Positions 2,629-57,461 of a DNA stretch of 64,000 bases are shown here, in pieces; the stretch's first letter is position 1; each line of letters opens with the position of its first letter. The DNA comes from an uncultured Bacilli bacterium (lineage in GTDB: Bacteria > Bacillota_I > Bacilli_A > RF39 > UBA660): contig CAKORJ010000001.1 of assembly GCA_934101575.1 (NCBI GenBank), forward strand, positions 541,972 through 605,971, written 5' to 3'. The notes below the pieces were generated by a model, which saw only the letters and a program-made list of their open reading frames with translations, made no database searches and was not told where the DNA came from. A program made the position numbers and the translations under genes.

Positions 2629-3975
2629 TTATTTTAATTTCTCTACTAATTTGTCTAATTCCATTCCTCTGGATGCTTTTACTAGAATTGTGTCTTCTGG
2701 TTTTAAAATTTGCTTTATTTTATCATAAAATTCTTCTTTTGTCAAAAAATAATATGCTTTTATACCTTTTTTTACTGCTTCTTCATATGTATATTTTGAT
2801 TCTTTTCCTATAGATATTAATAGATCACATGTTATATCTTTTCCTAGTTTCCTGTGTATTTCTTCACTATAGCCTCCTAGTTCTAGAATATCTCCTAGAA
2901 TTGCTACTTTTCTTGTTTTATAGTTATTAAGTACTGATATTGCACTCATTACTGAGTCATAGTTTGCATTATATGTATCATTTATTATTGTGTATTTGTC
3001 TGTTTTTACTAATTCTAATCTATTTTTAGTCATTTCTATGTTTAACAAACCTTCTTCTATTTGTTCTTTTGTTAAACCTAAATCTATTCCTAACATTATT
3101 GCTATTAAGGCATTACCTATATTATGTTTAGCTGGACTTGCTATTTTAAACTTGTATTCTTTGTCTTTGTATACACATGTGAATGAACTTGTTTCTTCTA
3201 TTTTGTAGTCTTTGCAGTAAATGTCATTGTTTTCTTCAAAGCCATATGTTAATAACTTATAATCGTGTTGTTTGTTTTTTAATGTTTTTAGATATTTATC
3301 ATCACCATTTACTATTAGTGTATCTTTAGAGGTTAAACTATTTGCTATTTCCATTTTTGAATAGAAGATTCCTTCTTGATTTTTAAAGTTCATTATATGA
3401 CTCATTCCTATATTTGTTATTATTGCTATGTTTGGATGAACTATATTGGTTAAATAATTTAAATCTCCTTTTTTATCCATGGCCATTTCTATTACTGCTA
3501 TTTGTGTTTTTTTATTTATATTTAATAGTGTTTTAGGAAGTCCTATTTCATTATTTTGGTTTCCTTGAGTTTTCAATGTGTTATACTTTTGGCTTAATAC
3601 TGAACTTATTATGTCTTTTGTTGAAGTTTTTCCTACGCTTCCGGTTATTCCTATTGTTGTTAGATTAAACTTTTCTTTGTAACCTTTTGCTATGTGACCT
3701 AATGCTATTTTTGTATCTTTTACTTTTATTAGATTTATATTTTCTTTGTTAAACTCATGATTTTCATCACATAAGAAGTTCCTACATCCTAAATTATAGG
3801 CACTTTCCATAAATGTGTGTCCATCAAATTTTTCTCCTATTATGGGGATAAATAATGTGTCTTGATCTACTTCTCTACTATCTATTGAAATTTTTGTTAT
3901 ATCTTGGTTTTTTGTTTCTTGTATTTTTATTCCTTTTGTAAAGGATATTATTTCTTGTATTTTTAATTTTTCCAT
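2629..3975 (-). CDS. murF: UDP-N-acetylmuramoyl-tripeptide--D-alanyl-D-alanine ligase MurF
   Basis: GITGSVGKTSTKDII P-loop, INDTYNANYDS motif, 448 aa. Confidence 0.85.
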   Translation of the reverse strand: MEKLKIQEIISFTKGIKIQETKNQDITKISIDSREVDQDTLFIPIIGEKFDGHTFMESAYNLGCRNFLCDENHEFNKENINLIKVKDTKIALGHIAKGYKEKFNLTTIGITGSVGKTSTKDIISSVLSQKYNTLKTQGNQNNEIGLPKTLLNINKKTQIAVIEMAMDKKGDLNYLTNIVHPNIAIITNIGMSHIMNFKNQEGIFYSKMEIANSLTSKDTLIVNGDDKYLKTLKNKQHDYKLLTYGFEENNDIYCKDYKIEETSSFTCVYKDKEYKFKIASPAKHNIGNALIAIMLGIDLGLTKEQIEEGLLNIEMTKNRLELVKTDKYTIINDTYNANYDSVMSAISVLNNYKTRKVAILGDILELGGYSEEIHRKLGKDITCDLLISIGKESKYTYEEAVKKGIKAYYFLTKEEFYDKIKQILKPEDTILVKASRGMELDKLVEKLK

Positions 3976-5436
3976 CTATTGATCCTTTCTTTTACTTAAT
4001 TCATCTTGAGCTATTTTCATATCTGTTTTATATGGTTTGTAATCATTTCCTATTATAATGAAATCTTCATCACCTTTTCCTAAAATTGCTAACACATCGT
4101 TTTCTGTTAGATTTTTTACTGCGGTTCTTATTGCTGTTTCTCTGTCTTCAATTATTTCATAGTTGTTATGATATTTTTTTATATGCTCTGCTATGTCATT
4201 GCAAATATCTATTGCTTTATGATTTCCTGGGTCGTCTTCAGTTAGATAAACATAGTCTGCATATTTTCCTGCTAGGTTACCCATTCCTTTTTTTCTTGTA
4301 GCCCCTTTATCTCCGGTTGCACCGAATACTACTTTTATTTTTTTATCTGGGTAATCTTTTTTTAGTGTTTCATATACTTTTTCAGTGCTTAATTCATTAT
4401 GGGCATAATCTATTATTATAGGAAATTTGTCATTATCAATTATATTCATTCTGCCGGGAATTATTGTCTCTTCTAATCCTTTTTGGATATCTTGTTTTGT
4501 TACTTTTAGAATTTTGCTTATTACTATAGCACATGTTGCATTTTCAATATTGAATCTTCCTGGGATATTTATATGATAATTTTCTGTTTTATCTTCGTGT
4601 TCTACGCCAAATGTTAGATTTTTGTCTTTTGTAATATTTTTAATTTGATAGTCACAGTCATTTGTGTAGCCATATGTTATTATATTTTTATCTTTTATAC
4701 TATTATATATAGTGCTATAATGATCAGTTTGTTTAAACAATATAATTGTTTGACATTTTTTAAGAAACTCTATTTTACAGTTTAAGTACTCTTCGAAGTT
4801 TTTATGTTCAAGCGGAGAAATGTGATCTTCTCCTATGTTGAGAAATGCTCCTAGATTGAATGTCATACCATAATCTCTTTTGTGATATTCAGCTTGACTT
4901 GATACTTCCATTGTTACATATTTAATATGTTGTTCTTGCATTTCATGCAAATACTTGTGAAGTTCTAAACTTTCAGGAGTAGTCAAATGAGTTGGGCCAC
5001 TTGTTTTACCTGTGTAAAAATAATGCGTTGCGAATATTCCTGGTTTATAGTGTAAGTGATTTTTTAATATGTTATGTAAGAAATAGTTAGTTGTGGTTTT
5101 TCCTTTTGTTCCTGTTAATCCTATTTTATATAGATTATCTGGATAGAAAAGATTTGCTATTACTGCTAGGGATATTCTTTCATCTTTTACTATTATTTTA
5201 GGGATGTCTACATTATAATCTTTATTGCTTATGTATGCTGTTGCACCTTTATTAATTGCTTCTAGTAGATACTCTTTTTTAAAACTTGTTCCTTTACAAA
5301 TAAATAGTGTTTTATCTTTTACTTCTTTTGAGTTATATGTTATGTATGAAAAACTTATATCTTTACTATCATATTCTATTAGTTGATTTTCTTCTTTTAA
5401 TTTATTTATTATTTGTTTATAATTCATTTTCATCAA
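3976..5436 (-). CDS. murE: UDP-N-acetylmuramoyl-L-alanyl-D-glutamate--diamino-acid ligase MurE
   Basis: GLTGTKGKTTT P-loop, DYAHN motif, 486 aa, contiguous with murF. Confidence 0.85.
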   Translation of the reverse strand: MMKMNYKQIINKLKEENQLIEYDSKDISFSYITYNSKEVKDKTLFICKGTSFKKEYLLEAINKGATAYISNKDYNVDIPKIIVKDERISLAVIANLFYPDNLYKIGLTGTKGKTTTNYFLHNILKNHLHYKPGIFATHYFYTGKTSGPTHLTTPESLELHKYLHEMQEQHIKYVTMEVSSQAEYHKRDYGMTFNLGAFLNIGEDHISPLEHKNFEEYLNCKIEFLKKCQTIILFKQTDHYSTIYNSIKDKNIITYGYTNDCDYQIKNITKDKNLTFGVEHEDKTENYHINIPGRFNIENATCAIVISKILKVTKQDIQKGLEETIIPGRMNIIDNDKFPIIIDYAHNELSTEKVYETLKKDYPDKKIKVVFGATGDKGATRKKGMGNLAGKYADYVYLTEDDPGNHKAIDICNDIAEHIKKYHNNYEIIEDRETAIRTAVKNLTENDVLAILGKGDEDFIIIGNDYKPYKTDMKIAQDELSKRKDQ

Positions 5437-6322
5437 TCCTTTTTTTATTTCTAGGATGTGTTTTTAGATACACATCTTTTAATCTATCATTTGTTACATG
5501 AGTATATACTTGAGTTGCTCTTAGGGATTCATGTCCTAATAGTTCTTGAACACTTAATAGATCACATCCTTCGTTTAACATATGTGTTGCAAAAGTATGT
5601 CTTAACATATGAGGAGATATTTTTGTTTCTATGCTTGTTTTTGCTATTATTTTATTTAATATATATCTTATTCCTCTGGATGTTAACCTTTCTTTATGAT
5701 TATTTATTAATAGATACTCATTTTTATCTGTTCTTTGTTTTAAATATAAGTCTAATATTTCTCTTGTATATTCGCCAAAGTATACTATTCTTTCTTTATT
5801 TCCTTTTCCTAGAATTTTTATTTTGTTTTCATAGAGGTTTATGTCTTTTATTTTCATATATTCTAGTTCTCCGACTCTTATTCCTGTTGCGTATAGTATT
5901 TCTAATATTAATCTGTCTCTTAGTCCATAAAAGGTTGTTGTATCACAGATATTAAACATTTCTTCTAGTTCATTATAATATAGAAATTTTGGTAATAGTT
6001 TGTCTTTTTTGGGACCTTTTGTTAGAGAAAAGGGATTATATTTTATGTAATTATTTCTTGCTAAGTATTTATAAAAGTTTCTTAATGAGCTTATCTTTCT
6101 TGAGATTGTATTTTTTGATAGTTTTAAACTATCCATGTAATTAAAGAATTGTCTTATGTCTTTGTACTCTACTTCTAGAAAGTTATAGCTATTTTTATCT
6201 AGAAATTTCTTAAAGAATTCTATGTCTTCTTCATAGCCTTCTATTGTGTTTATTGAGTAGTTCTTTTGGATTTTTAAATATTCTAGATATTTTTCTATAT
6301 AAGTATCCATTGGTATCACCAA
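5417..6322 (-). CDS. tyrosine recombinase XerC/XerD family
   Basis: 301 aa. C-terminal HxxR...LLGHESLRATQVYTHV catalytic-Tyr region typical of Xer recombinases. Overlaps murE start by 20 nt. Confidence 0.7.
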   Translation of the reverse strand: MVIPMDTYIEKYLEYLKIQKNYSINTIEGYEEDIEFFKKFLDKNSYNFLEVEYKDIRQFFNYMDSLKLSKNTISRKISSLRNFYKYLARNNYIKYNPFSLTKGPKKDKLLPKFLYYNELEEMFNICDTTTFYGLRDRLILEILYATGIRVGELEYMKIKDINLYENKIKILGKGNKERIVYFGEYTREILDLYLKQRTDKNEYLLINNHKERLTSRGIRYILNKIIAKTSIETKISPHMLRHTFATHMLNEGCDLLSVQELLGHESLRATQVYTHVTNDRLKDVYLKTHPRNKKRIDENEL

Positions 6323-6390
6323 TACTAGTTTATCACAATTTTATCTCTATATCAAAAGTGCATAATAAAATAGACACATATTTACAGTGT

Positions 6391-8106
6391 CTATTCGTCT
6401 TTATATAAGTTTAACATTTTTTTATGAATATCTGGTTCTATTATATTGATTGCTGCTATTGCAGTTTCTAATGATTTTTTATAATTTCCTTTAAAGAAAA
6501 ACTTACTTGCCATATCTAAACCATTTTCTATATCTTTATCTATTGGTTTATATCTATTTCCATATATTATTGTCATTTCACTTAGTTTAGCTGTTTTTAT
6601 CATTTCATTTGTGGTGCTATATAGTTTTAATGATAAGTCTCTGGCTGTATCTACTCTTATATTTAATGTTTTTATTGTTATTGGAGTTTTATCTAGTTCT
6701 TTTATTATTTCATATATAGCGTCATTTGCTTCACTTAATTCTACAAAATAATTATTTGATATTATTGGAAGTGGATTTTTTCTTATTTTTAATCTACATT
6801 TTTTTAATAGTTCAGTTATTTCTTCTAGTTGTTCACGGGCTCTCATCTCATCTTCATGCATACTTCCTAATGATTTTAGACATAAATTTAAGTTTTCTTC
6901 AATTGTTCCAAAATTGTTTGATAGTTTAGCTATTCTATCTTTTAATTTTGAATACGGAGATTTTTTATTTTTTAGGTCTCCGATTATTGTATTGAACTCA
7001 TTATTGGCTTTATATAAATCTTTATTTACTGCTTCTAGGTCTTTCAAATCCTCTTCATTTAAGTCATACATGTTTTTTATATCGTCTAATTGATCATATA
7101 TGTCCGTTACTACTCTATTTACTTTTTCTAGTTTTATTTTAAATGCTTTAGCAGTTTCATCGAATACTTTTTTAGATCTTTTTTCTATTTCAAAATCATT
7201 TAATAGATTGTCTAAGTAATCTAAAAATGTTTTTAATTCAAACATACTGTCTTCTAGATTTAATATTTTTATTCTTGTTTTTATGTCGTTTAATTTTTTT
7301 TCTATTTGTAGTATATTGTATGGTACTTTCATGTAGTCTAATGGATAATCTCTGGCTGTTAGTCTGTCATATGTATCATTAACTTCTTTTATTCTGTTTG
7401 GCAATATTTTGTCAGTAAGTAGTATTAAATCTGGCATTTCTTCTATTACTACACCCATGTGGGCAATCATTTCATCTATTACTTTTACTATTCCTACGAC
7501 TTCGTCGTACTCATTGTTTTCCATGACTTCTTCAAAATCAGAGAATTTTTTTTCTATATTTTCAAATTGAAGTTCAATGTTTGTTACTATGTCTCCATAT
7601 GCAGATTTATTGTTATTTAGTGTTCTTTCTAATTCTCTAAATCTTGATTTTAATTTTGTTACAATAGCTCTATTTCTTTCTTCACTCATTGTAACTTCTC
7701 TTATTTCGTCTAATAAATTATCTGTACTTACTCTTAATTTATATATTTCCATTTCTAGATTTATAACTTTTTCTTTAGCTTCGTTATAGTCTCTATTTTC
7801 GATTAAATTATCTACATCTAATAATTTATCTGTTATTTCACTATATCTTTCATTTTTAATTATGTCATATCTTTTTTGCCATTCATTATATTTGTCTTCT
7901 AGTTGATCATTTTTTACTATTACTTTGATTTTATCTAGTTCTGTCATAACGGGAGTGGCTACTATTAGGTTTCTTTGTCTTTCTAACTCTTCTAGTTTTT
8001 CTCTTAAAGTCTTATATTTTTTTTGTTTATACACTATGAAAAATACTGCGACGAGTATTAGAGATATTATAATAATTGATGATAAATATAACATTTTTAT
8101 ATCCAT
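6391..8106 (-). CDS. ezrA: septation ring formation regulator EzrA
   Basis: 571 aa. N-terminal TM helix then long coiled-coil. C-terminal IIYGNRYKP resembles the EzrA QNR patch. Confidence 0.7.
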   Translation of the reverse strand: MDIKMLYLSSIIIISLILVAVFFIVYKQKKYKTLREKLEELERQRNLIVATPVMTELDKIKVIVKNDQLEDKYNEWQKRYDIIKNERYSEITDKLLDVDNLIENRDYNEAKEKVINLEMEIYKLRVSTDNLLDEIREVTMSEERNRAIVTKLKSRFRELERTLNNNKSAYGDIVTNIELQFENIEKKFSDFEEVMENNEYDEVVGIVKVIDEMIAHMGVVIEEMPDLILLTDKILPNRIKEVNDTYDRLTARDYPLDYMKVPYNILQIEKKLNDIKTRIKILNLEDSMFELKTFLDYLDNLLNDFEIEKRSKKVFDETAKAFKIKLEKVNRVVTDIYDQLDDIKNMYDLNEEDLKDLEAVNKDLYKANNEFNTIIGDLKNKKSPYSKLKDRIAKLSNNFGTIEENLNLCLKSLGSMHEDEMRAREQLEEITELLKKCRLKIRKNPLPIISNNYFVELSEANDAIYEIIKELDKTPITIKTLNIRVDTARDLSLKLYSTTNEMIKTAKLSEMTIIYGNRYKPIDKDIENGLDMASKFFFKGNYKKSLETAIAAINIIEPDIHKKMLNLYKDE

Positions 8107-8236
8107 ATAATCACCTACTATGTTAATTTTAACACAATTTATGTTCTTTAGAAATAGAAATAGTAAAAATAGTTTGTTTTTATGAAAAGAATTTACGTTT
8201 TAGTGTTGTAAAGTTGTTGTAAAAAGTAGTTTTATA

Positions 8237-8270
8237 TAAAAAAGAAGAAGTCTTATTTGGCTTCTTCTGT
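8237..8270 (-). terminator. rho-independent terminator of rny (overlaps stop codon)
   Basis: mRNA stem AGAAGAAG / loop CCAAAUAAGA / stem CUUCUUCU followed by UUUUUU. Confidence 0.6.
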
Positions 8271-9818
8271 TACTCTTGTTTCGCGTATTACTGTTACTTT
8301 GATAGTACCTGGATACTGCATTGTGTTTTCTATTTTTTCTTTTATTTCTCTTGCTATTTTATGACTTGTTTTATCATCTATTTCTTCTGGTTTTACAAGT
8401 ACTCTTAGTTCTCTTCCGGCTTGAAGAGCATAACTTTTATCTACGCCTTTTATTTCTTTTGATATTCCTTCTAGTTGTTCTAATCTTTTTATATAGTTTT
8501 CTAATGAATCATTACGTGCGCCTGGGCGTGATGCTGATAACGAATCTGCTATTTGAACTAGATTAGATATTATACTTGTTGCTTCATGATCTCCATGATG
8601 TGATGCTATAGCGTTTATAACTACTTCATTTTCTTTGTGTTTCTTTGCTATATTCACTCCTATTTCTACATGGCTTCCTTCTACTTCATGATCTATCGCT
8701 TTACCTATATCATGAAGCAATCCTGCTCTTTTTGCTAGTGTTACATTTTCTCCTAGCTCTGAGGCCATTATTCCTGTTAGGTGTGCTACTTCAAGGGAAT
8801 GACTTAAAGCATTTTGTCCATAACTGGTTCTAAAATGTAATTTACCTATTGTTTCTATAAGCTCATTATCTACTTTAGTAATTCCTAATTCAAATAAGGC
8901 ATTGTTACCATATTCAATTATTTTTTCTTTCATGTCTCGTACTGTTTTGTCATAAACTTCTTCTATTCTAGTTGGATGGATTCTACCATCTTTTATAAGG
9001 GTTTCAATAGTTATTTTTGCTATTTCTCTTCTTAATGGATCAAACGAAGATATTACAATTGCTTCTGGAGTATCGTCTATTATAAGATCTACCCCTGTTA
9101 TTGCTTCAATTGTTCTTATATTTCTTCCTTCTCTTCCTATTATTCTTCCTTTCATTTCGTTGTTTGGAAGTTCAATTGTTGATACTGTTTGTTCATTACT
9201 TACTTCGGAAGAATATCTTTGCATTGAATTAACTAATAAATCTTTGGCGCTTTTATCTGCTGTTAATTTTGCTTCATCTTCTCTTTCTTTGATATAATTA
9301 GCTATTTCAATATTCATGTCCTCTTCGACTTTTTTCATTATAAGTTCTCTTGCTTTATTTTTTTCAAGACCACTTATTTTTGAAAGCATGTCTATTTGTT
9401 CTTGTTTTAACTTTTCCATTTCAACTTGATCATTTTGAATTTTTTTAAGTTTATCTTGTAATTTTTCTTCACGATCATCTAAAAGTTGTTCTCTTTTTTG
9501 GTAATTTTCATCTCTCTTATCCATATTTTTTTCTCTTTGGATAAGTCTTTCTTCTGATTCTTTTATCTCTGATTTTTTTTCTTTTATTTCTTTATCTAAA
9601 TCTAATTTTAGTTTATGTGCTTCTTCTTTTGCTTCGAAAAGCATATCTCTTTTAACTTTTTCAGATTCTTTTTGGGCTTTTTCTGATAAAGTTCTTATTT
9701 TTGATTCAGCGTTATTAACTCTAAAATGATTTATTAAAAAAGTAAAACCAATTCCTAGGAATAATCCAATTATGACCAGTAAAATGGAGAAAACTGTACT
9801 ATCCATATTTACCTCCAT
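8253..9818 (-). CDS. rny: ribonuclease Y
   Basis: N-terminal TM helix, coiled-coil, KH domain ([15 protein letters not shown]), HD domain ([21 protein letters not shown]). 521 aa. Confidence 0.9.
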
Positions 9819-9909: not shown

Positions 9910-12513
9910 TTAATTTATTTTTATGTGTTGTTGGTCGTATTTATAGTTGTGTAATACTTCTTCGGATGTTAATGCTTTTGTGTAAACTTTAGCACTATAA
10001 GTATTCATGTTTATTGCGCTTGTTGTACCACTTCCACTATAAATTTGTGCTTTATTTATACCTAGGTTTCCTATGTTCGAGGTATATTCATAAGATCCTC
10101 CTATTGAGGTTGACTCTTTTACTTTTATTCCGTTTATGTATGATGTTAATTTATTGTTTGTTACGTCATTTACCATTGTAAAGTTTATTATTTTAGTTGG
10201 TGCTGTGTGTTCATTAAAGTCAGCCCCTGCTAGCCCTGAAGTTGTTCTTATGCCGGCATAGACTTTCATTTGATTTGCTTTACTGTTTTGCCAGAATATT
10301 GCTTGACCACTATAGTATGCTCCTCCTATAAGGACTCCTGTGTTACCGTATGTGGTATTAGTGTATGGGACACTGTTTGCCATCATTGTTATTGATAATG
10401 TACTATTTGTTGTAGGAGTTAGTACTGATGAAAGTGGCATGCTTGATGTTACTGTTGTACTTGGAAGTAATAAATTATTTGTTTTCCATGTTCCAGATGA
10501 TATTGTTCCATTGTATCCTGTTCCGCTTAAATCTTTCCAAGAGGATAATACTGTTAAATGATTACTTCCTGAGTTTGCATAACCATCATACCAAAGTTTT
10601 AGATTTTCTTGGACATAACCGTTTATGTTTTCTGTATAAGCATTTATTCTTCGACCATTTGAATCTTGAATATTTGCTTCATCTATTACTTGAGTAAATG
10701 TTTTATTATCACTTGATACGGATGTTACTGAATCATAATATGTTCTTACATCTCCAAAATAGTTCCATACTGCTATTTCATCTAAATCATATGTCTCTTC
10801 TAAATCTATTGTTACACACTGATTATTTGTGTATGAACTGGCATTGGCCCAACTAGAATAAGTTATATCTCCATCTGTTATTCTTGAATATGGGTGTGTA
10901 CTACTTTCTGCGGTTGTTCCTGTTGCTGTTTTGCCTTTTGCTACGTTTACTCCGTCTTTTATGGCTTGTATTTCAAGCCAATGATTTTGATTATTAGCAG
11001 TATTATAACTAATACAATCTTTTATATATCTGACATTGTTTAATTTTGTTGTTCTTTTTTTAGGTTTTGTATCTACATATGTGATTTTTGCATAACCATC
11101 TCCGGTATTTTCTCCTTCTAGCATTTTTCCTCCGACAAAGTATTTGCCACTATAATGAATTGTTTGATTAGTATGAGTTATAGTAGTACTTTCCTTAACA
11201 GAATTTACTCCGGCATATCCACTTATGTAGGAAGACCCTCCGGATGCTGACCATGTTCCGTTTGAAAGTCCAGATGATCCTGATGCTCCATAATATCCTG
11301 ATCCTCCGCCTGAACCACTTCCTGTTGTAGCACTTGCGTTTGATGCTCCTCCAGCCCCACCTTTTCCAAATGATCCAGCTTCGCCATTTGATTGGGCACC
11401 ACTATATTTTGTTGGCGCTGCTCCTCCACTTGTTTGTGTTCCTGGATTACTTAAGTATTGTTGGTAAGTGGAAAATATGGTTTTCGTTCCATATAATGTA
11501 CCACCATATCCTAATGTATAACCACTACCGCTATCTCCTTCTGCACCGCCTCCGGCTACCATTATTCTACTTATAAGAGATTCTGTGTTATCCCAAGATC
11601 CTCCTTTTAATCTTATATCTGTAGCACTTCCACCTGTTCCACCACAAATTCCACTTTTTGCAGGTTTTGCTACTCCTCCACCATTAAATTCATACCCACT
11701 TGTTCTACAATTTGTATCTGGTCTTGTGCCTTTTCCTCCGACGTAAATATATATCTTTTCTCCGGCTTTTAAGTATATATAACCACTTGTTTTAGCTCCT
11801 CCACTATCATATCCTCCGGTTGTTTGTTCATATCCTGCACCACCACCTAGTTCTACATAATAGTAACCATTTCTTGGAACTGTATACTCTTGTGGTTCTC
11901 CTGTATAATTGAAAGTTTTTGCACTATCTTTTGTTTCCATGCTTTCTGGTCTTTGTTCTGCTTCTATTCTTAGTTTTAAAAATGCCTTATAATCCTCAAG
12001 TTTTGATATCTCTTCTTCTTTTGATTTATCTAACCATATTCTAAGTTTATAATTTAAAACTTCGTTTTTATATATGATATCACTATCAATTATATTCTTT
12101 ACTTTTTCTAAGGACATTGGTCCATATTCTTCACCATTTATTTCAAGTCCTACTTTTATATATTTTGTGTCTAATACTTTTCCTGTATAAGTACTTGGTA
12201 CTTCATTTAGTAACTTTAAATCGTATTTTGCTGGGTAGCTACCGGTGTTTTCTATTTTAAATTCATAGATATCTTCTTGTAACAAGCCTTCTTCATCACC
12301 CATAATAGATATTTTTTTATTGATTGTTTCGTAGTTTTCGGTTAGTTTTAACTCTATGCTTCCTGTTTTTATTATTTGTTCATTTGTATCTTGATTATTT
12401 CCTTTTAATAGAGCAAATGATGTTCCGGTTATTAAAGATAAGATTCCTATTAGGACTATACTTAGACTTATTATATATTTCTTTTTATTTATTTCTTTTT
12501 TTATCTTAATCAT
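9910..12513 (-). CDS. large secreted multidomain surface protein with four parts: SipW-cognate-like signal plus TasA/camelysin-like N-domain, Gly_rich domain, F5/8 type C (discoidin) domain, and LamG/ConA-like lectin domain
   Basis: 867 aa. Signal ...LSLITGTSFALLKGN. N-domain paralogous to that of the 38227-41412 protein (SIELKL.., MGDEEGLLQE, YKLRIWLD). FNYTGEPQEYTVPRNGYYYVELGGGAGY... Gly-rich block. Discoidin-like WLEIQAIKDG...CVTIDLEETYDLDEIAVWNYFGD. C-terminal LTSEEVLHNY LamG-type ending. Confidence 0.6.
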   Translation of the reverse strand: MIKIKKEINKKKYIISLSIVLIGILSLITGTSFALLKGNNQDTNEQIIKTGSIELKLTENYETINKKISIMGDEEGLLQEDIYEFKIENTGSYPAKYDLKLLNEVPSTYTGKVLDTKYIKVGLEINGEEYGPMSLEKVKNIIDSDIIYKNEVLNYKLRIWLDKSKEEEISKLEDYKAFLKLRIEAEQRPESMETKDSAKTFNYTGEPQEYTVPRNGYYYVELGGGAGYEQTTGGYDSGGAKTSGYIYLKAGEKIYIYVGGKGTRPDTNCRTSGYEFNGGGVAKPAKSGICGGTGGSATDIRLKGGSWDNTESLISRIMVAGGGAEGDSGSGYTLGYGGTLYGTKTIFSTYQQYLSNPGTQTSGGAAPTKYSGAQSNGEAGSFGKGGAGGASNASATTGSGSGGGSGYYGASGSSGLSNGTWSASGGSSYISGYAGVNSVKESTTITHTNQTIHYSGKYFVGGKMLEGENTGDGYAKITYVDTKPKKRTTKLNNVRYIKDCISYNTANNQNHWLEIQAIKDGVNVAKGKTATGTTAESSTHPYSRITDGDITYSSWANASSYTNNQCVTIDLEETYDLDEIAVWNYFGDVRTYYDSVTSVSSDNKTFTQVIDEANIQDSNGRRINAYTENINGYVQENLKLWYDGYANSGSNHLTVLSSWKDLSGTGYNGTISSGTWKTNNLLLPSTTVTSSMPLSSVLTPTTNSTLSITMMANSVPYTNTTYGNTGVLIGGAYYSGQAIFWQNSKANQMKVYAGIRTTSGLAGADFNEHTAPTKIINFTMVNDVTNNKLTSYINGIKVKESTSIGGSYEYTSNIGNLGINKAQIYSGSGTTSAINMNTYSAKVYTKALTSEEVLHNYKYDQQHIKIN

Positions 12514-14995: not shown

Positions 14996-15343
14996 TAACA
15001 TTTAATAAGCCATGTTCTGTACCTATTTCTAGGTGGCAAACATTTATCTATCTTTCGATCCTTGACTAAAGTTCATTTTCCTTGTCAAAGCTCCCCTACC
15101 ATAATTTGGGTTTCTCACTTGTGGGGTTTACCACGTTCCACTCATATTATTTCTAATATGCATCGTCACTATGGCACTTTTATATCTAATCAAACCATAT
15201 TTAAAACTTAGGTTTTTTCGAAGCCGTAGGATTACTCCTCCTAAGGTTATTTTTTTCCTTAGCACAAACACTAAAAGCATCTCAGCTTTTGTGAGCATGG
15301 ACTTTCCTCTACAACTAGTTGCAGCGTTTGCCTAAAATGTTCT
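14996..15343 (-). ncRNA. rnpB: RNase P RNA (rnpB), type B (Firmicutes)
   Basis: Minus-strand sequence contains GAGGAAAGTCCATGCTCAC, AGTGCCATAGTGACGA, AGTGGAACGTGGTAAACCCC, GAGAAACCCAAATTATGGTAGGGGA, and ACAGAACATGGCTTA. Collinear with B. subtilis rnpB. GC-rich island in an AT-rich genome. Sits directly downstream of gpsB as in Bacillus. Ends are within a few nt. Confidence 0.9.
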
Positions 15344-30295: not shown

Positions 30296-30374
30296 TTTAT
30301 TCCTCCTTATTATATATGATAATTATATCTTATATTTAGTTTTTTAACAATATTGTTTTTAAGAAAAGAAAAAT

Positions 30375-30406
30375 CTTATAAAATTACTTATTTGTAATTT
30401 TATAAG
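30375..30406 (-). terminator. perfect 13-bp inverted repeat (CTTATAAAATTAC-ttattt-GTAATTTTATAAG) downstream of 30428-32044; likely rho-independent terminator
   Basis: Seen directly. U-rich tract follows on the minus strand. Confidence 0.5.
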
Positions 30407-30427
30407 ACTGTTATTTTTTTATCATGT

Positions 30428-32044
30428 TTATGTGGTTATTATGAGGCGAGAGGACTTGTCAGAACCAGCATTACCATTGCTGCAATTTGAGTAAAACGCC
30501 CCGGCATTTGCACCATTGCTATAGCCACAACTATGTAGGAACCAAGGGTAAGTCGAGTCCGCAAGGTAGGAGTAATCGCTATACCATCCAGCTAAACCTT
30601 TGTACACTTCTTTGATTCCATCACCCAATTTGCTTCTTGTTAATTCATAACTTGTACCATAACTATATTTATCATAGTATTTATTATTTGGATATGCTAC
30701 TCCTGTATATGATGTATAATTACCAGAGTCATATACTTTTCCTGTGTATCCAGAATTAGATGAAGTTTTATATCCACTCATCATTGTTGTTCCATCATTA
30801 CTTACAATATTTGCCATTGTATATTCATCTGCTCCTCCACTCATATCATATACTCCATATATATTATGCGTTGTTGAGGCAACTTTACTCATATCTTTTG
30901 TTGTACTTTTTGTATTAGTATTATAATCAAGTAAATATCCATCATATGTGTAAAACCCATAAGTATTATATTGTGTTGTTGATGTCTGATCTGTATATAC
31001 TGTATTTATTGCTGTTTTTCCTCCTGGTGCTCCTCCACTTCTTCCTGTATAATAACTAGAACTATTGTTTATATTAACTTCACTACAAGTACCATCTGTA
31101 CATGTTCCATATTTAGAGTGTGATAAGTAGGCTACTGCTCCCCATTCACTATTCTTTATCATATGAGTATCTGTATTCGTACTAAATCCATAGCTATTAC
31201 CACTATTTTTCATGCTTATTATATTTGTTTCAAAACTACTTACTTTTTGATTTCTTAAACTACTTAAATTTGGTTTTGTTGTAATACTGCTTATTGTTCC
31301 TGTTAGTTCAAATTTACCTACCCAGAATCCTTTTATTTCTTCGTTACCAAATGTAAATGCTGGATGTGTATATGTTTTATTATTACAAGTACTATCTGTA
31401 CAAGTTTCATTTGTTTCTTTTAATTTACATGTTTCTGAAGGGTCCCCTTTTGTTCCACTTATTGCATCTTCACATATTATTTCTCCGGTTTTATCTGTAC
31501 TGCTTTCCCATGTTATTTCTATTTCTTGCTCATTACTAGTTTTTGTACCATTCTCATTATAATTCCATACTTTATATTTATATCTTGGTATCCAAACCTC
31601 CATTGTAAGTATATCATCCATTGGTATTTCTGTCCCTACACTTGCTGATTGATATTTGCTTCTATTAGTAGAGCTAACTGTTACACTATTCGCCCATTTC
31701 TTTTCACAATAATCATACCAATTATTACTTTTATTAGTACTATCTGCTTTTTTCCATGTTTCTGTATTTTCATCATAATATACTGGTATCATAGCACTAT
31801 CAAGTACTGGTGCATTTGGTTTGTTTTGATTACATGTATCTACTGTAGCTTCTATTGTTTTTGTTCCTATTATTTTGTCTGTGAATAGTGCAAATGATGA
31901 GTTTATTTTATATGATATGAATCCTACTGCTATGAGGAATACTATACATATAATTGATAACTTTACTTTATTAAAATCTTTTATATTTTTGTTTAAGAGT
32001 CTATAGATCGCCTCCCCCTTCAGGCGAATATTTGTCCGTTTCAC
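30428..32044 (-). CDS. secreted Cys/Ser/Thr/Tyr-rich protein with SipW-cognate-like signal and C-terminal FGE-sulfatase/C-type-lectin-like domain ending in a DGR-variable-region-like segment
   Basis: 538 aa. GTG start with AAGGAG RBS. Signal ...ISYKINSSFALFTDK. FGE-like motifs GFWVGKFELTG and SEWGAVAYLSHSKYG. C-terminus HSCGYSNGANAGAFYSNCSNGNAGSDKSSRL. Both gene ends are GC-rich relative to the genome. Confidence 0.6.
   Translation of the reverse strand: MKRTNIRLKGEAIYRLLNKNIKDFNKVKLSIICIVFLIAVGFISYKINSSFALFTDKIIGTKTIEATVDTCNQNKPNAPVLDSAMIPVYYDENTETWKKADSTNKSNNWYDYCEKKWANSVTVSSTNRSKYQSASVGTEIPMDDILTMEVWIPRYKYKVWNYNENGTKTSNEQEIEITWESSTDKTGEIICEDAISGTKGDPSETCKLKETNETCTDSTCNNKTYTHPAFTFGNEEIKGFWVGKFELTGTISSITTKPNLSSLRNQKVSSFETNIISMKNSGNSYGFSTNTDTHMIKNSEWGAVAYLSHSKYGTCTDGTCSEVNINNSSSYYTGRSGGAPGGKTAINTVYTDQTSTTQYNTYGFYTYDGYLLDYNTNTKSTTKDMSKVASTTHNIYGVYDMSGGADEYTMANIVSNDGTTMMSGYKTSSNSGYTGKVYDSGNYTSYTGVAYPNNKYYDKYSYGTSYELTRSKLGDGIKEVYKGLAGWYSDYSYLADSTYPWFLHSCGYSNGANAGAFYSNCSNGNAGSDKSSRLIITT
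30431..30600 (-). other. candidate diversity-generating-retroelement variable region (VR)-like segment, GC-rich, at the 3' end of the CDS
   Basis: About 45-50 % GC versus about 25 % background. C/G-ending codons, multiple AAT Asn codons. Protein motif matches the CLec-fold DGR VR consensus (GGSW..NGANAG.F..N.N....N.G.RL). Confidence 0.4.
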
Positions 32045-57215: not shown

Positions 57216-57292
57216 TGGTGACCAGTACGGGATTTGAACCCGTGAATGCTGCCGTGAAAGGGCAGTGTGTTCAACCGCTTCACCAACTGGCC
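57216..57292 (-). tRNA. tRNA-Glu (anticodon TTC), CCA encoded
   Basis: GGCCAGTTGGTGAAGCGGTTGAACACACTGCCCTTTCACGGCAGCATTCACGGGTTCAAATCCCGTACTGGTCACCA. Near-identical in layout to B. subtilis tRNA-Glu. Confidence 0.9.
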
Positions 57293-57301
57293 ATTTAAAA
57301 A

Positions 57302-57378
57302 TGGCGCCTCAACTAGGACTCGAACCTAGGACCCCTTGATTAACAGTCAAGTGCTCTAACCGACTGAGCTATTGAGGC
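57302..57378 (-). tRNA. tRNA-Asn (anticodon GTT), CCA encoded
   Basis: GCCTCAATAGCTCAGTCGGTTAGAGCACTTGACTGTTAATCAAGGGGTCCTAGGTTCGAGTCCTAGTTGAGGCGCCA. Confidence 0.9.
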
Positions 57379-57384
57379 ATAAAA

Positions 57385-57461
<77 letters not shown>

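Follow-up and report, generated by a model that had tools for sequence, protein, structure and literature searches.

TaqVP, the variable protein of a diversity-generating retroelement (DGR), comes from a Thermus aquaticus prophage (PDB 5VF4; PMC6328139). The TvpA DGR of Treponema denticola has seven remote paralogous targets (PMC5758913), and non-adjacent targets were found for 45 of 372 DGRs (Wu et al. 2018, PMC5758913); an active one is usually required to differ from the template repeat (TR) by A-to-N changes only (PMC5758913). DGRs containing a MutS-like (MSL) gene constitute Architecture D, with the Legionella DGR as an example (PMC5758913). Here, we analyzed a stretch of 64,000 nucleotides from an uncultured Bacilli bacterium (contig CAKORJ010000001.1), the whole of which is called the window, and a gene on its minus strand (30428–32044) that encodes a 538-aa secreted or anchored surface protein. 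We propose, with a probability of roughly 0.8, that positions 30440–30579 of this gene are a DGR variable region (VR), putatively the ligand-binding tip of a TaqVP-like C-type-lectin (CLec) domain on a surface protein of low-GC gut Bacillota, and that the gene is a non-adjacent target which is now quiescent.

The window protein and TaqVP share a CLec fold of the formylglycine-generating enzyme (FGE) type with the VR at the extreme C-terminus, and in both the invariant last β-strand appears to double as the IMH (initiation of mutagenic homing) sequence. The window protein differs from TaqVP in that the two are only 14–17% identical, in its N-terminal signal-anchor and extra Cys-rich domain, in being encoded on the chromosome rather than on a prophage, in lying apart from its cassette, and in the extent of variation, with about 20 AAY-type codons in the TR of the window's species versus 9 variable residues in TaqVP. 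Similar to TvpA, the present system belongs to a cell and not to a phage: one DGR has several paralogous surface-protein targets of CLec fold at scattered chromosomal sites, and its TR matches remote VRs. However, the accessory gene is of the HRDC type in Treponema and an MSL open reading frame (ORF) together with Avd here, the window VR carries 10 non-A mismatches, which the published criterion does not allow in a live remote target, and the present paralogues can be ranked by their degree of decay. The order target–MSL–TR–avd–reverse transcriptase (RT) at the loci L153 and L155, the small MSL (136 aa) with a Pfam MutS_I match and the presence of Avd correspond to Architecture D, from which the present elements differ in their uncultured low-GC gut Bacillota host and in targets with SipW-like or pilin-like N-termini. 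Remote paralogous targets, MutS-like accessory genes and CLec-fold C-terminal VRs are already known; the low-GC gut Bacillota host, the large unannotated target family and the within-genome series of VR decay are new.

DGR cassettes and the probable template of the window VR

A screen for gene pairs with near-identical bodies and divergent tails returned P0034, P0035 and P0051, in which the 250 aa ahead of the tail are 97–100% identical and the tails 64% identical, and also P0029 versus P0100–P0112. Downstream of the target at L153 (P0035) and L154 (P0051) lie a 136-aa MutS_I-like ORF, a 139-nt repeat of the VR (the TR), bAvd (PF22296) and an RVT_1 RT. The target beside this complete cassette is 66% identical to the window protein, and past the cassette come addB and addA, then xfp at some distance, an arrangement shared with the neighbourhood of the window gene. 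Of the mismatches between VR and TR, 21 of 24 at L153 and 25 of 29 at L154 are located at TR adenines, with 31% A in the TR. Comparison of P0035 and P0458 revealed identical bodies and 21 differing positions, all within residues 475–540. This DGR is active and rewrites VRs on identical gene bodies. The VR alleles in this related species are stable over several strains, yet rewritten.

With the L153 RT as query, an RT of the window's own species was identified, P0335 (77% identical, 338 aa, on 40 contigs), which matches RVT_1 and has intact IGNYSSQ and YMDD motifs. Immediately adjoining it upstream are a bAvd gene (PF22296, 111 aa) and a MutS_I-like ORF (136 aa). The P0335 loci of three samples (L155–L157) consist of a T2SSF/prepilin-peptidase neighbourhood, a 1232-aa target, MSL, TR, bAvd and RT, and the TR (L155:9385–9523), which holds 41 adenines, is the same in all of them. 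The records of P0335, of the cis target P0451, of P0122 (the database protein identical to the window protein) and of two paralogues alike name a 706,636-bp contig as the longest; this shared record for P0335, P0451 and P0122 supports the placement of RT, Avd and TR outside the window but in the genome of the window gene. The window itself contains no TR-like copy, Avd, RT or MutS-like ORF according to searches that included cassette alignment. An earlier sequence-only reading of this DNA had likewise seen no RT, avd or template repeat in the 64 kb. A regular expression for RT motifs gave 0 matches in the window and 0 in 32 family loci, and a degenerate TR scan of a genome-contig collection, in which each VR base was allowed to be that base or A, returned 120 matches that were all poly-A runs and uninformative.

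The species TR is homologous to positions 30440–30579 (minus strand, codons ~489–535; blastn 80% over 140 nt, E 1e-33). The sequence-only reading had placed the variable span at 30431–30600, which does contain the VR; the TR alignment narrows it. Over the 134-nt core, the window VR is changed at 16 of 40 TR-A sites and at 10 of 94 other sites (p = 1.8e-4, one-sided Fisher test, as for the following values). The cis target VR is changed at 17/40 TR-A sites and 3/94 other sites (p = 3.9e-8), the VR of paralogue L003 at 25/40 and 18/94 (p = 1.7e-6), and that of paralogue L002 at 22/40 and 37/94 (p = 0.07). When two IMH-boundary positions are included, the window VR has 12 non-A differences from the TR, 7 of them G>A or C>T changes, as AT-biased drift would produce. 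The sequence-only reading of this gene as a DGR target is thus supported by P0335, by a TR with adenine-enriched mismatches and by family members beside complete DGR cassettes.

The VR ends with an IMH-like invariant sequence, TCCTCTCGCCTCATAATAAC (30435–30454, minus strand), which encodes SSRLIIT and is conserved across "fresh" VRs. It is identical in the window VR and the cis VR, and the TR has CGCCCCTTAGAAC, with two positions different. Further downstream, a hairpin with a 14-bp stem, TCTTATAAAATTAC-N6-GTAATTTTATAAGA (30374–30407, minus strand), is followed by a T-run, with a DNA fold of −11.1 kcal/mol and a z of −5.35. Among the scanned loci, the hairpin motif was found only 3′ of VRs that are DGR-linked or have a high GC content at third codon positions (GC3), namely in the window, L001, L148 and L153–L157, while the regular expression missed L134 and L136, which hold variant copies. 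Hairpin and IMH-like end match in type those at the cis target. The hairpin is probably a terminator and may also be a DGR target-recognition stem-loop, and the two elements together may serve in target recognition. The decayed-VR paralogues L002 and L003 have unrelated terminators instead of the hairpin.

When the window gene is compared with the cis target, amino-acid identity is at its lowest in the VR (0.54), where synonymous third-position identity is at its highest (0.92, n = 25); third-position identity is 0.59 just upstream of the VR and 0.76–0.83 in the body. This combination is expected if one TR templated both VRs after the paralogues had diverged. A single, unchanged TR common to all paralogues was ruled out, because synonymous non-A sites differ between the paralogues.

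We propose that the genome has a single MutS-like-type DGR, which would lie outside the window and comprise the 1232-aa cis target, the MutS-like ORF, the TR, bAvd and the RT. Reverse transcription of the TR RNA would misincorporate bases at adenines, and the resulting cDNA would take the place of a VR, with the IMH-like 3′ end and the downstream hairpin as guides. In this scheme, the window gene would be a non-adjacent paralogous target, whose VR was presumably written from the present TR or its immediate ancestor. Homing in trans at the window locus is what we infer from this arrangement. Writing from the TR would explain the adenine-free scaffold codons, the NNC/NNT variable codons and a GC content of 49% where the genome has 28%. 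After it was last written, the VR would have escaped rewriting in every sampled strain and drifted by AT-biased point mutation.

Codon footprint and target protein family

The GC-rich gene end pointed out by the sequence-only reading was confirmed. The 150-nt window at 30443–30592 has 49.3% GC versus 27.8% in the whole 64 kb, and GC is 0.47–0.49 across 30450–30599 in 100-nt windows. It is the third-highest GC peak, exceeded only by a tRNA cluster and a Gly-rich ORF. Synonymous codons were resampled 200,000 times from the usage of the window's own long ORFs (GC3 0.158, third-position A 0.534). In codons 489–534, 23 third positions are G or C versus 8.9 ± 2.5 expected, and 3 are A versus 14.7 expected; no resample reached either value (P < 5e-6 each). 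The 59 preceding codons are ordinary (GC3 9 versus 9.6 expected). The GC anomaly of the tail therefore lies in synonymous codon choice, beyond chance, and not in amino-acid content, and it is a depletion of adenine with a sharp 5′ boundary at codon 489 rather than a general GC enrichment.

Analysis of the family revealed the same footprint. Tail GC3 across family genes is bimodal, with values of 0.43–0.55, the window gene included, versus 0.08–0.21, the background level, and third-position T is still high (0.36–0.46) in the high-GC3 tails. The scaffold codons of the high-GC3 tails are CGT/CGC, CTT/CTC, GCG/GCC, GGT/GGC/GGG and TCC/TCT/TCG, with 19% containing A, and those of the low-GC3 tails are AGA, TTA, GGA, GCA and TCA, with 63% containing A. 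In 82 distinct tails, a fixed scaffold (GWYSD.S.LA.S..PWF.RGG.Y..G..AG.F.S.....G......SSRLIITP) is interleaved with variable sites, and the variable columns of the high-GC3 tails consist of NNC/NNT codons. The variable columns of the tails as a whole are dominated by S, Y, N, D and G, and K/E/Q/M/W account for 4.2% of the variable tail columns versus 24.2% of the variable body columns, a residue spectrum that is the one expected of AAY mutagenesis. Adenine-free scaffold codons and a local rise in GC3 thus allow a DGR variable region to be recognised in raw sequence, also where tens of kb or more separate it from the retroelement.

The window protein is exactly identical to P0122, which is found on 34 contigs. 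Read from the translation, it has an N-terminal hydrophobic signal-anchor (aa 28–47; 31904–31963, minus strand) followed by SSFALFTD, which is putatively SipW/TasA-like. The SipW-type label relies on the resemblance of SSFALFTD to the motif, and no NCBIfam or Pfam model supports it. An NCBIfam scan of the window protein gave nothing meaningful. The protein also has an extra conserved Cys-rich domain of ~150 aa. The TaqVP-like CLec/FGE-fold domain comprises aa 222–538 (30431–31381, minus strand); the chain ends in ...WFLHSCGYSNGANAGAFYSNCSNGNAGSDKSSRLIITT, and the FGE/CLec-like motifs recorded earlier, GFWVGKFELTG and SEWGAVAYLSHSKYG, are indeed present upstream in it. The VR lies at the C-terminus of this domain with its variable residues on an exposed face.

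The FGE/CLec assignment of the sequence-only reading holds for the fold, which is TaqVP-like with the VR at the C-terminus, but not at the level of Pfam. FGE-sulfatase (PF03781) scores 19.4 bits over the whole protein and 20.2 over the domain, under the gathering threshold of 23.3 bits, so that the FGE link stands on fold and not on sequence membership. Among diverse relatives, 14 of 48 gave FGE-sulfatase matches, all weak. From FGE/SUMF proteins the family differs further in that it has no catalytic-residue evidence and in that its C-terminal segment is a hypervariable binding surface. A sequence-profile search of the PDB returned 5VF4 at only E = 0.86, and an AlphaFold2 prediction from a shallow alignment (A1) reached a pLDDT of 49 and was unusable.

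The target protein has more than 8000 homologues by word-sharing, all from gut and other metagenomes, with 2943 representatives at 50% identity, in which the domain is nearly always C-terminal. The N-termini of diverse relatives match type IV pilin N_methyl in 11 of 48 cases and camelysin (Peptidase_M73) in 1 of 48, which places the domain on proteins that are secreted or anchored in fibres. The window protein is probably an adhesin. In the window's species, the cis target (1232 aa) comes shortly after genes for T2SSF (PilC-like) and a prepilin peptidase (L155:704–2837, 4978–8676); together with the pilin N-termini, this is a hint that the family may include adhesins of pilus tips. In a viral contig collection, the family profile found 0 relatives and two VR/TR DNA patterns found 0 matches, and tblastn against GenBank phages and PLSDB plasmids gave a single irrelevant partial match. 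A gut-Bacillota surface-protein family of more than 8000 homologues with no Pfam assignment is thereby tied to ligand-binding diversification by DGRs.

State of the window copy and rival explanations

The sequence-only reading had suggested testing whether variation among strains is confined to template adenines; in the cluster of the window protein, the VR hardly varies. In the 90% identity cluster of 16 members, all assembled sequences, 3 of the 111 variable columns fall in the last 60 aa, and the N-terminal half varies freely. The VR is identical throughout, save for two residues in P0127 and the terminal residue, which is T or P. P0127, the sole VR variant, carries G507S and C521G at first-codon positions that are TR-adenine sites and keeps HSC; these changes could be point mutations under selection or the trace of partial homing. 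The persistence of the non-A mismatches indicates that the VR has not been rewritten from the present TR since they arose, as one homing event would erase them. The reading that we prefer is hence a remote target that is quiescent, perhaps an ex-target by now, and drifting to a relic. The suggestion that the cassette either acts in trans or is a relic agrees with the lack of a cassette in the window, and the invariant VR with its 10 non-A mismatches leans to the relic or quiescent end.

Several observations weigh against the proposed explanation. The window VR does not differ at TR adenines only, as the strict criterion for a live target demands: 10 of 94 non-A sites differ, and the near-universal RGG of the scaffold reads HSC, a non-A mismatch. 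Hypervariability of the VR is absent in the 16-member cluster. The window gene and the cis target are fairly recent duplicates, and a VR already written could be inherited. The co-residence of RT and window gene is taken from the matching 706,636-bp contig records, the contig itself being unread, and the TR used is from other samples of the species, although identical in three of them. The cis VR, too, does not vary between three samples and 34 contigs, and it departs from the TR at 3 non-A sites; the element as a whole appears dormant in the window's species.

That the window VR is still an active trans target, rewritten at low frequency while assemblies display only the dominant allele, we regard as unlikely. 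Low-frequency rewriting would be compatible with an IMH-like end and a hairpin as at the cis target, with the intact RT, Avd and TR, and with the location of both P0127 changes at TR-adenine first-codon positions; a related species keeps stable VR alleles over several strains that are still rewritten, and remote targets are documented for non-phage DGRs (PMC5758913). It is contradicted by the retention of the 10 non-A mismatches, including HSC for RGG, in all cluster members and by a VR with zero allele diversity in a cluster that has up to 111 variable columns outside it. A doubtful but weightier point concerns duplication: the VR might be a fossil, written when its ancestor was the cis target, after which the gene was duplicated to the addA|xfp junction and never homed in trans. 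The 75–86% nucleotide identity between window gene and cis target over aligned domains suits such an origin, family genes occupy differing housekeeping junctions in related genomes, so copies move, and the same-genome paralogues form a decay series in which GC3 drops in step with non-A mismatch. The third-position identity to the cis target, higher in the VR than upstream or in the body, instead suggests templating by a shared TR after divergence, and the IMH and hairpin are kept intact.

It is very improbable that the tail has nothing to do with a DGR and is a fast-evolving binding loop shaped by selection for Tyr/Ser/Asn/Gly, by gene conversion between paralogues or by transfer from a GC-richer donor. 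The depletion hits adenine and not A+T, as third-position T remains high; a TR with adenine-biased mismatches was found; and the phage, plasmid and viral collections hold no relatives. The differences of same-genome paralogue tails at synonymous C/T and G/C sites would accord with a non-DGR origin, as would an orphan tail copy at L148, one in ~30 loci, whose mismatches to the neighbouring VR are not A-specific. This orphan, however, has a TR 5′ flank and follows a MutS-like pseudogene, which marks it as a dead TR and not a silent cassette. A silent-cassette or gene-conversion model based on it (L148:3154–3306) was rejected, since it is the only copy in ~30 loci and belongs to a decayed DGR cassette.

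Returning to the quiescent remote target, the copies of this one genome can be ordered by decay. The share of non-A sites that mismatch the TR is 3% in the cis target, 11% in the window gene, 19% in L003 and 39% in L002, and tail GC3 is 0.47 in the window gene, 0.38 in L003 and 0.30 in L002, with 0.54 measured separately for the cis VR. Several stages of VR decay in one genome, together with a dead TR in a relative, constitute a natural series for target recruitment, release and fossilisation. A tentative extension is a "diversify-then-freeze" repertoire, in which a single chromosomal MutS-like-type DGR might write one adhesin copy at a time, copies would then relocate to other housekeeping junctions and escape homing, and every genome would build up a stock of fixed specificities. 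If so, the age of a copy would be legible from adenine re-accumulation and GC3 decay, making the DGR footprint a molecular clock, and a large share of the more than 2,900 clusters at 50% identity in gut Bacillota would be former DGR products.

Genomic surroundings

Family genes occur as single insertions at differing housekeeping junctions: addA|xfp in the window, rny|ezrA for P0004 and ddl|DGR-addB at L153. The pheT|PBP5 junction is taken by P0046 in the window's genome and by the 81%-identical P0002 in another. P0002 and P0004 lie at loci other than addA|xfp, so they are not positional orthologues of the window gene. The rny gene of the window (8253–9818, minus strand) is not followed by a family gene with the family tail motif.

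At L148, downstream of a 684-aa family gene, positions 2871–3306 contain MutS-like pseudogene fragments (59–74% identity) and then a copy in the TR position with a TR 5′ flank (92%), whose body is VR-like and diversified and whose 3′ end is of the VR type. Behind this copy come Tad/Flp pilus genes, and neither avd nor RT. L148 is a decayed DGR cassette, the end state of such an element.

The window also encodes an 867-aa ORF (9910–12513, minus strand) with a Gly-rich ALK_LTK_GRD-type region, the source of the 52% GC peak at 11236–11385. The N-terminal signal of this ORF (…TGTSFALLKG) is similar to the one in the DGR-target family, and the pair of this ORF and RNase Y also occurs in L160, where a family gene comes after it. 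The top GC peak of the window is a three-tRNA cluster (57219–57461, minus strand). A bacterial RNase P RNA of class B (15001–15339, minus strand; 284 bits) fits a Bacillota host, and a SASP (small acid-soluble spore protein) gene in a relative's locus likewise points to a low-GC Bacillota host.

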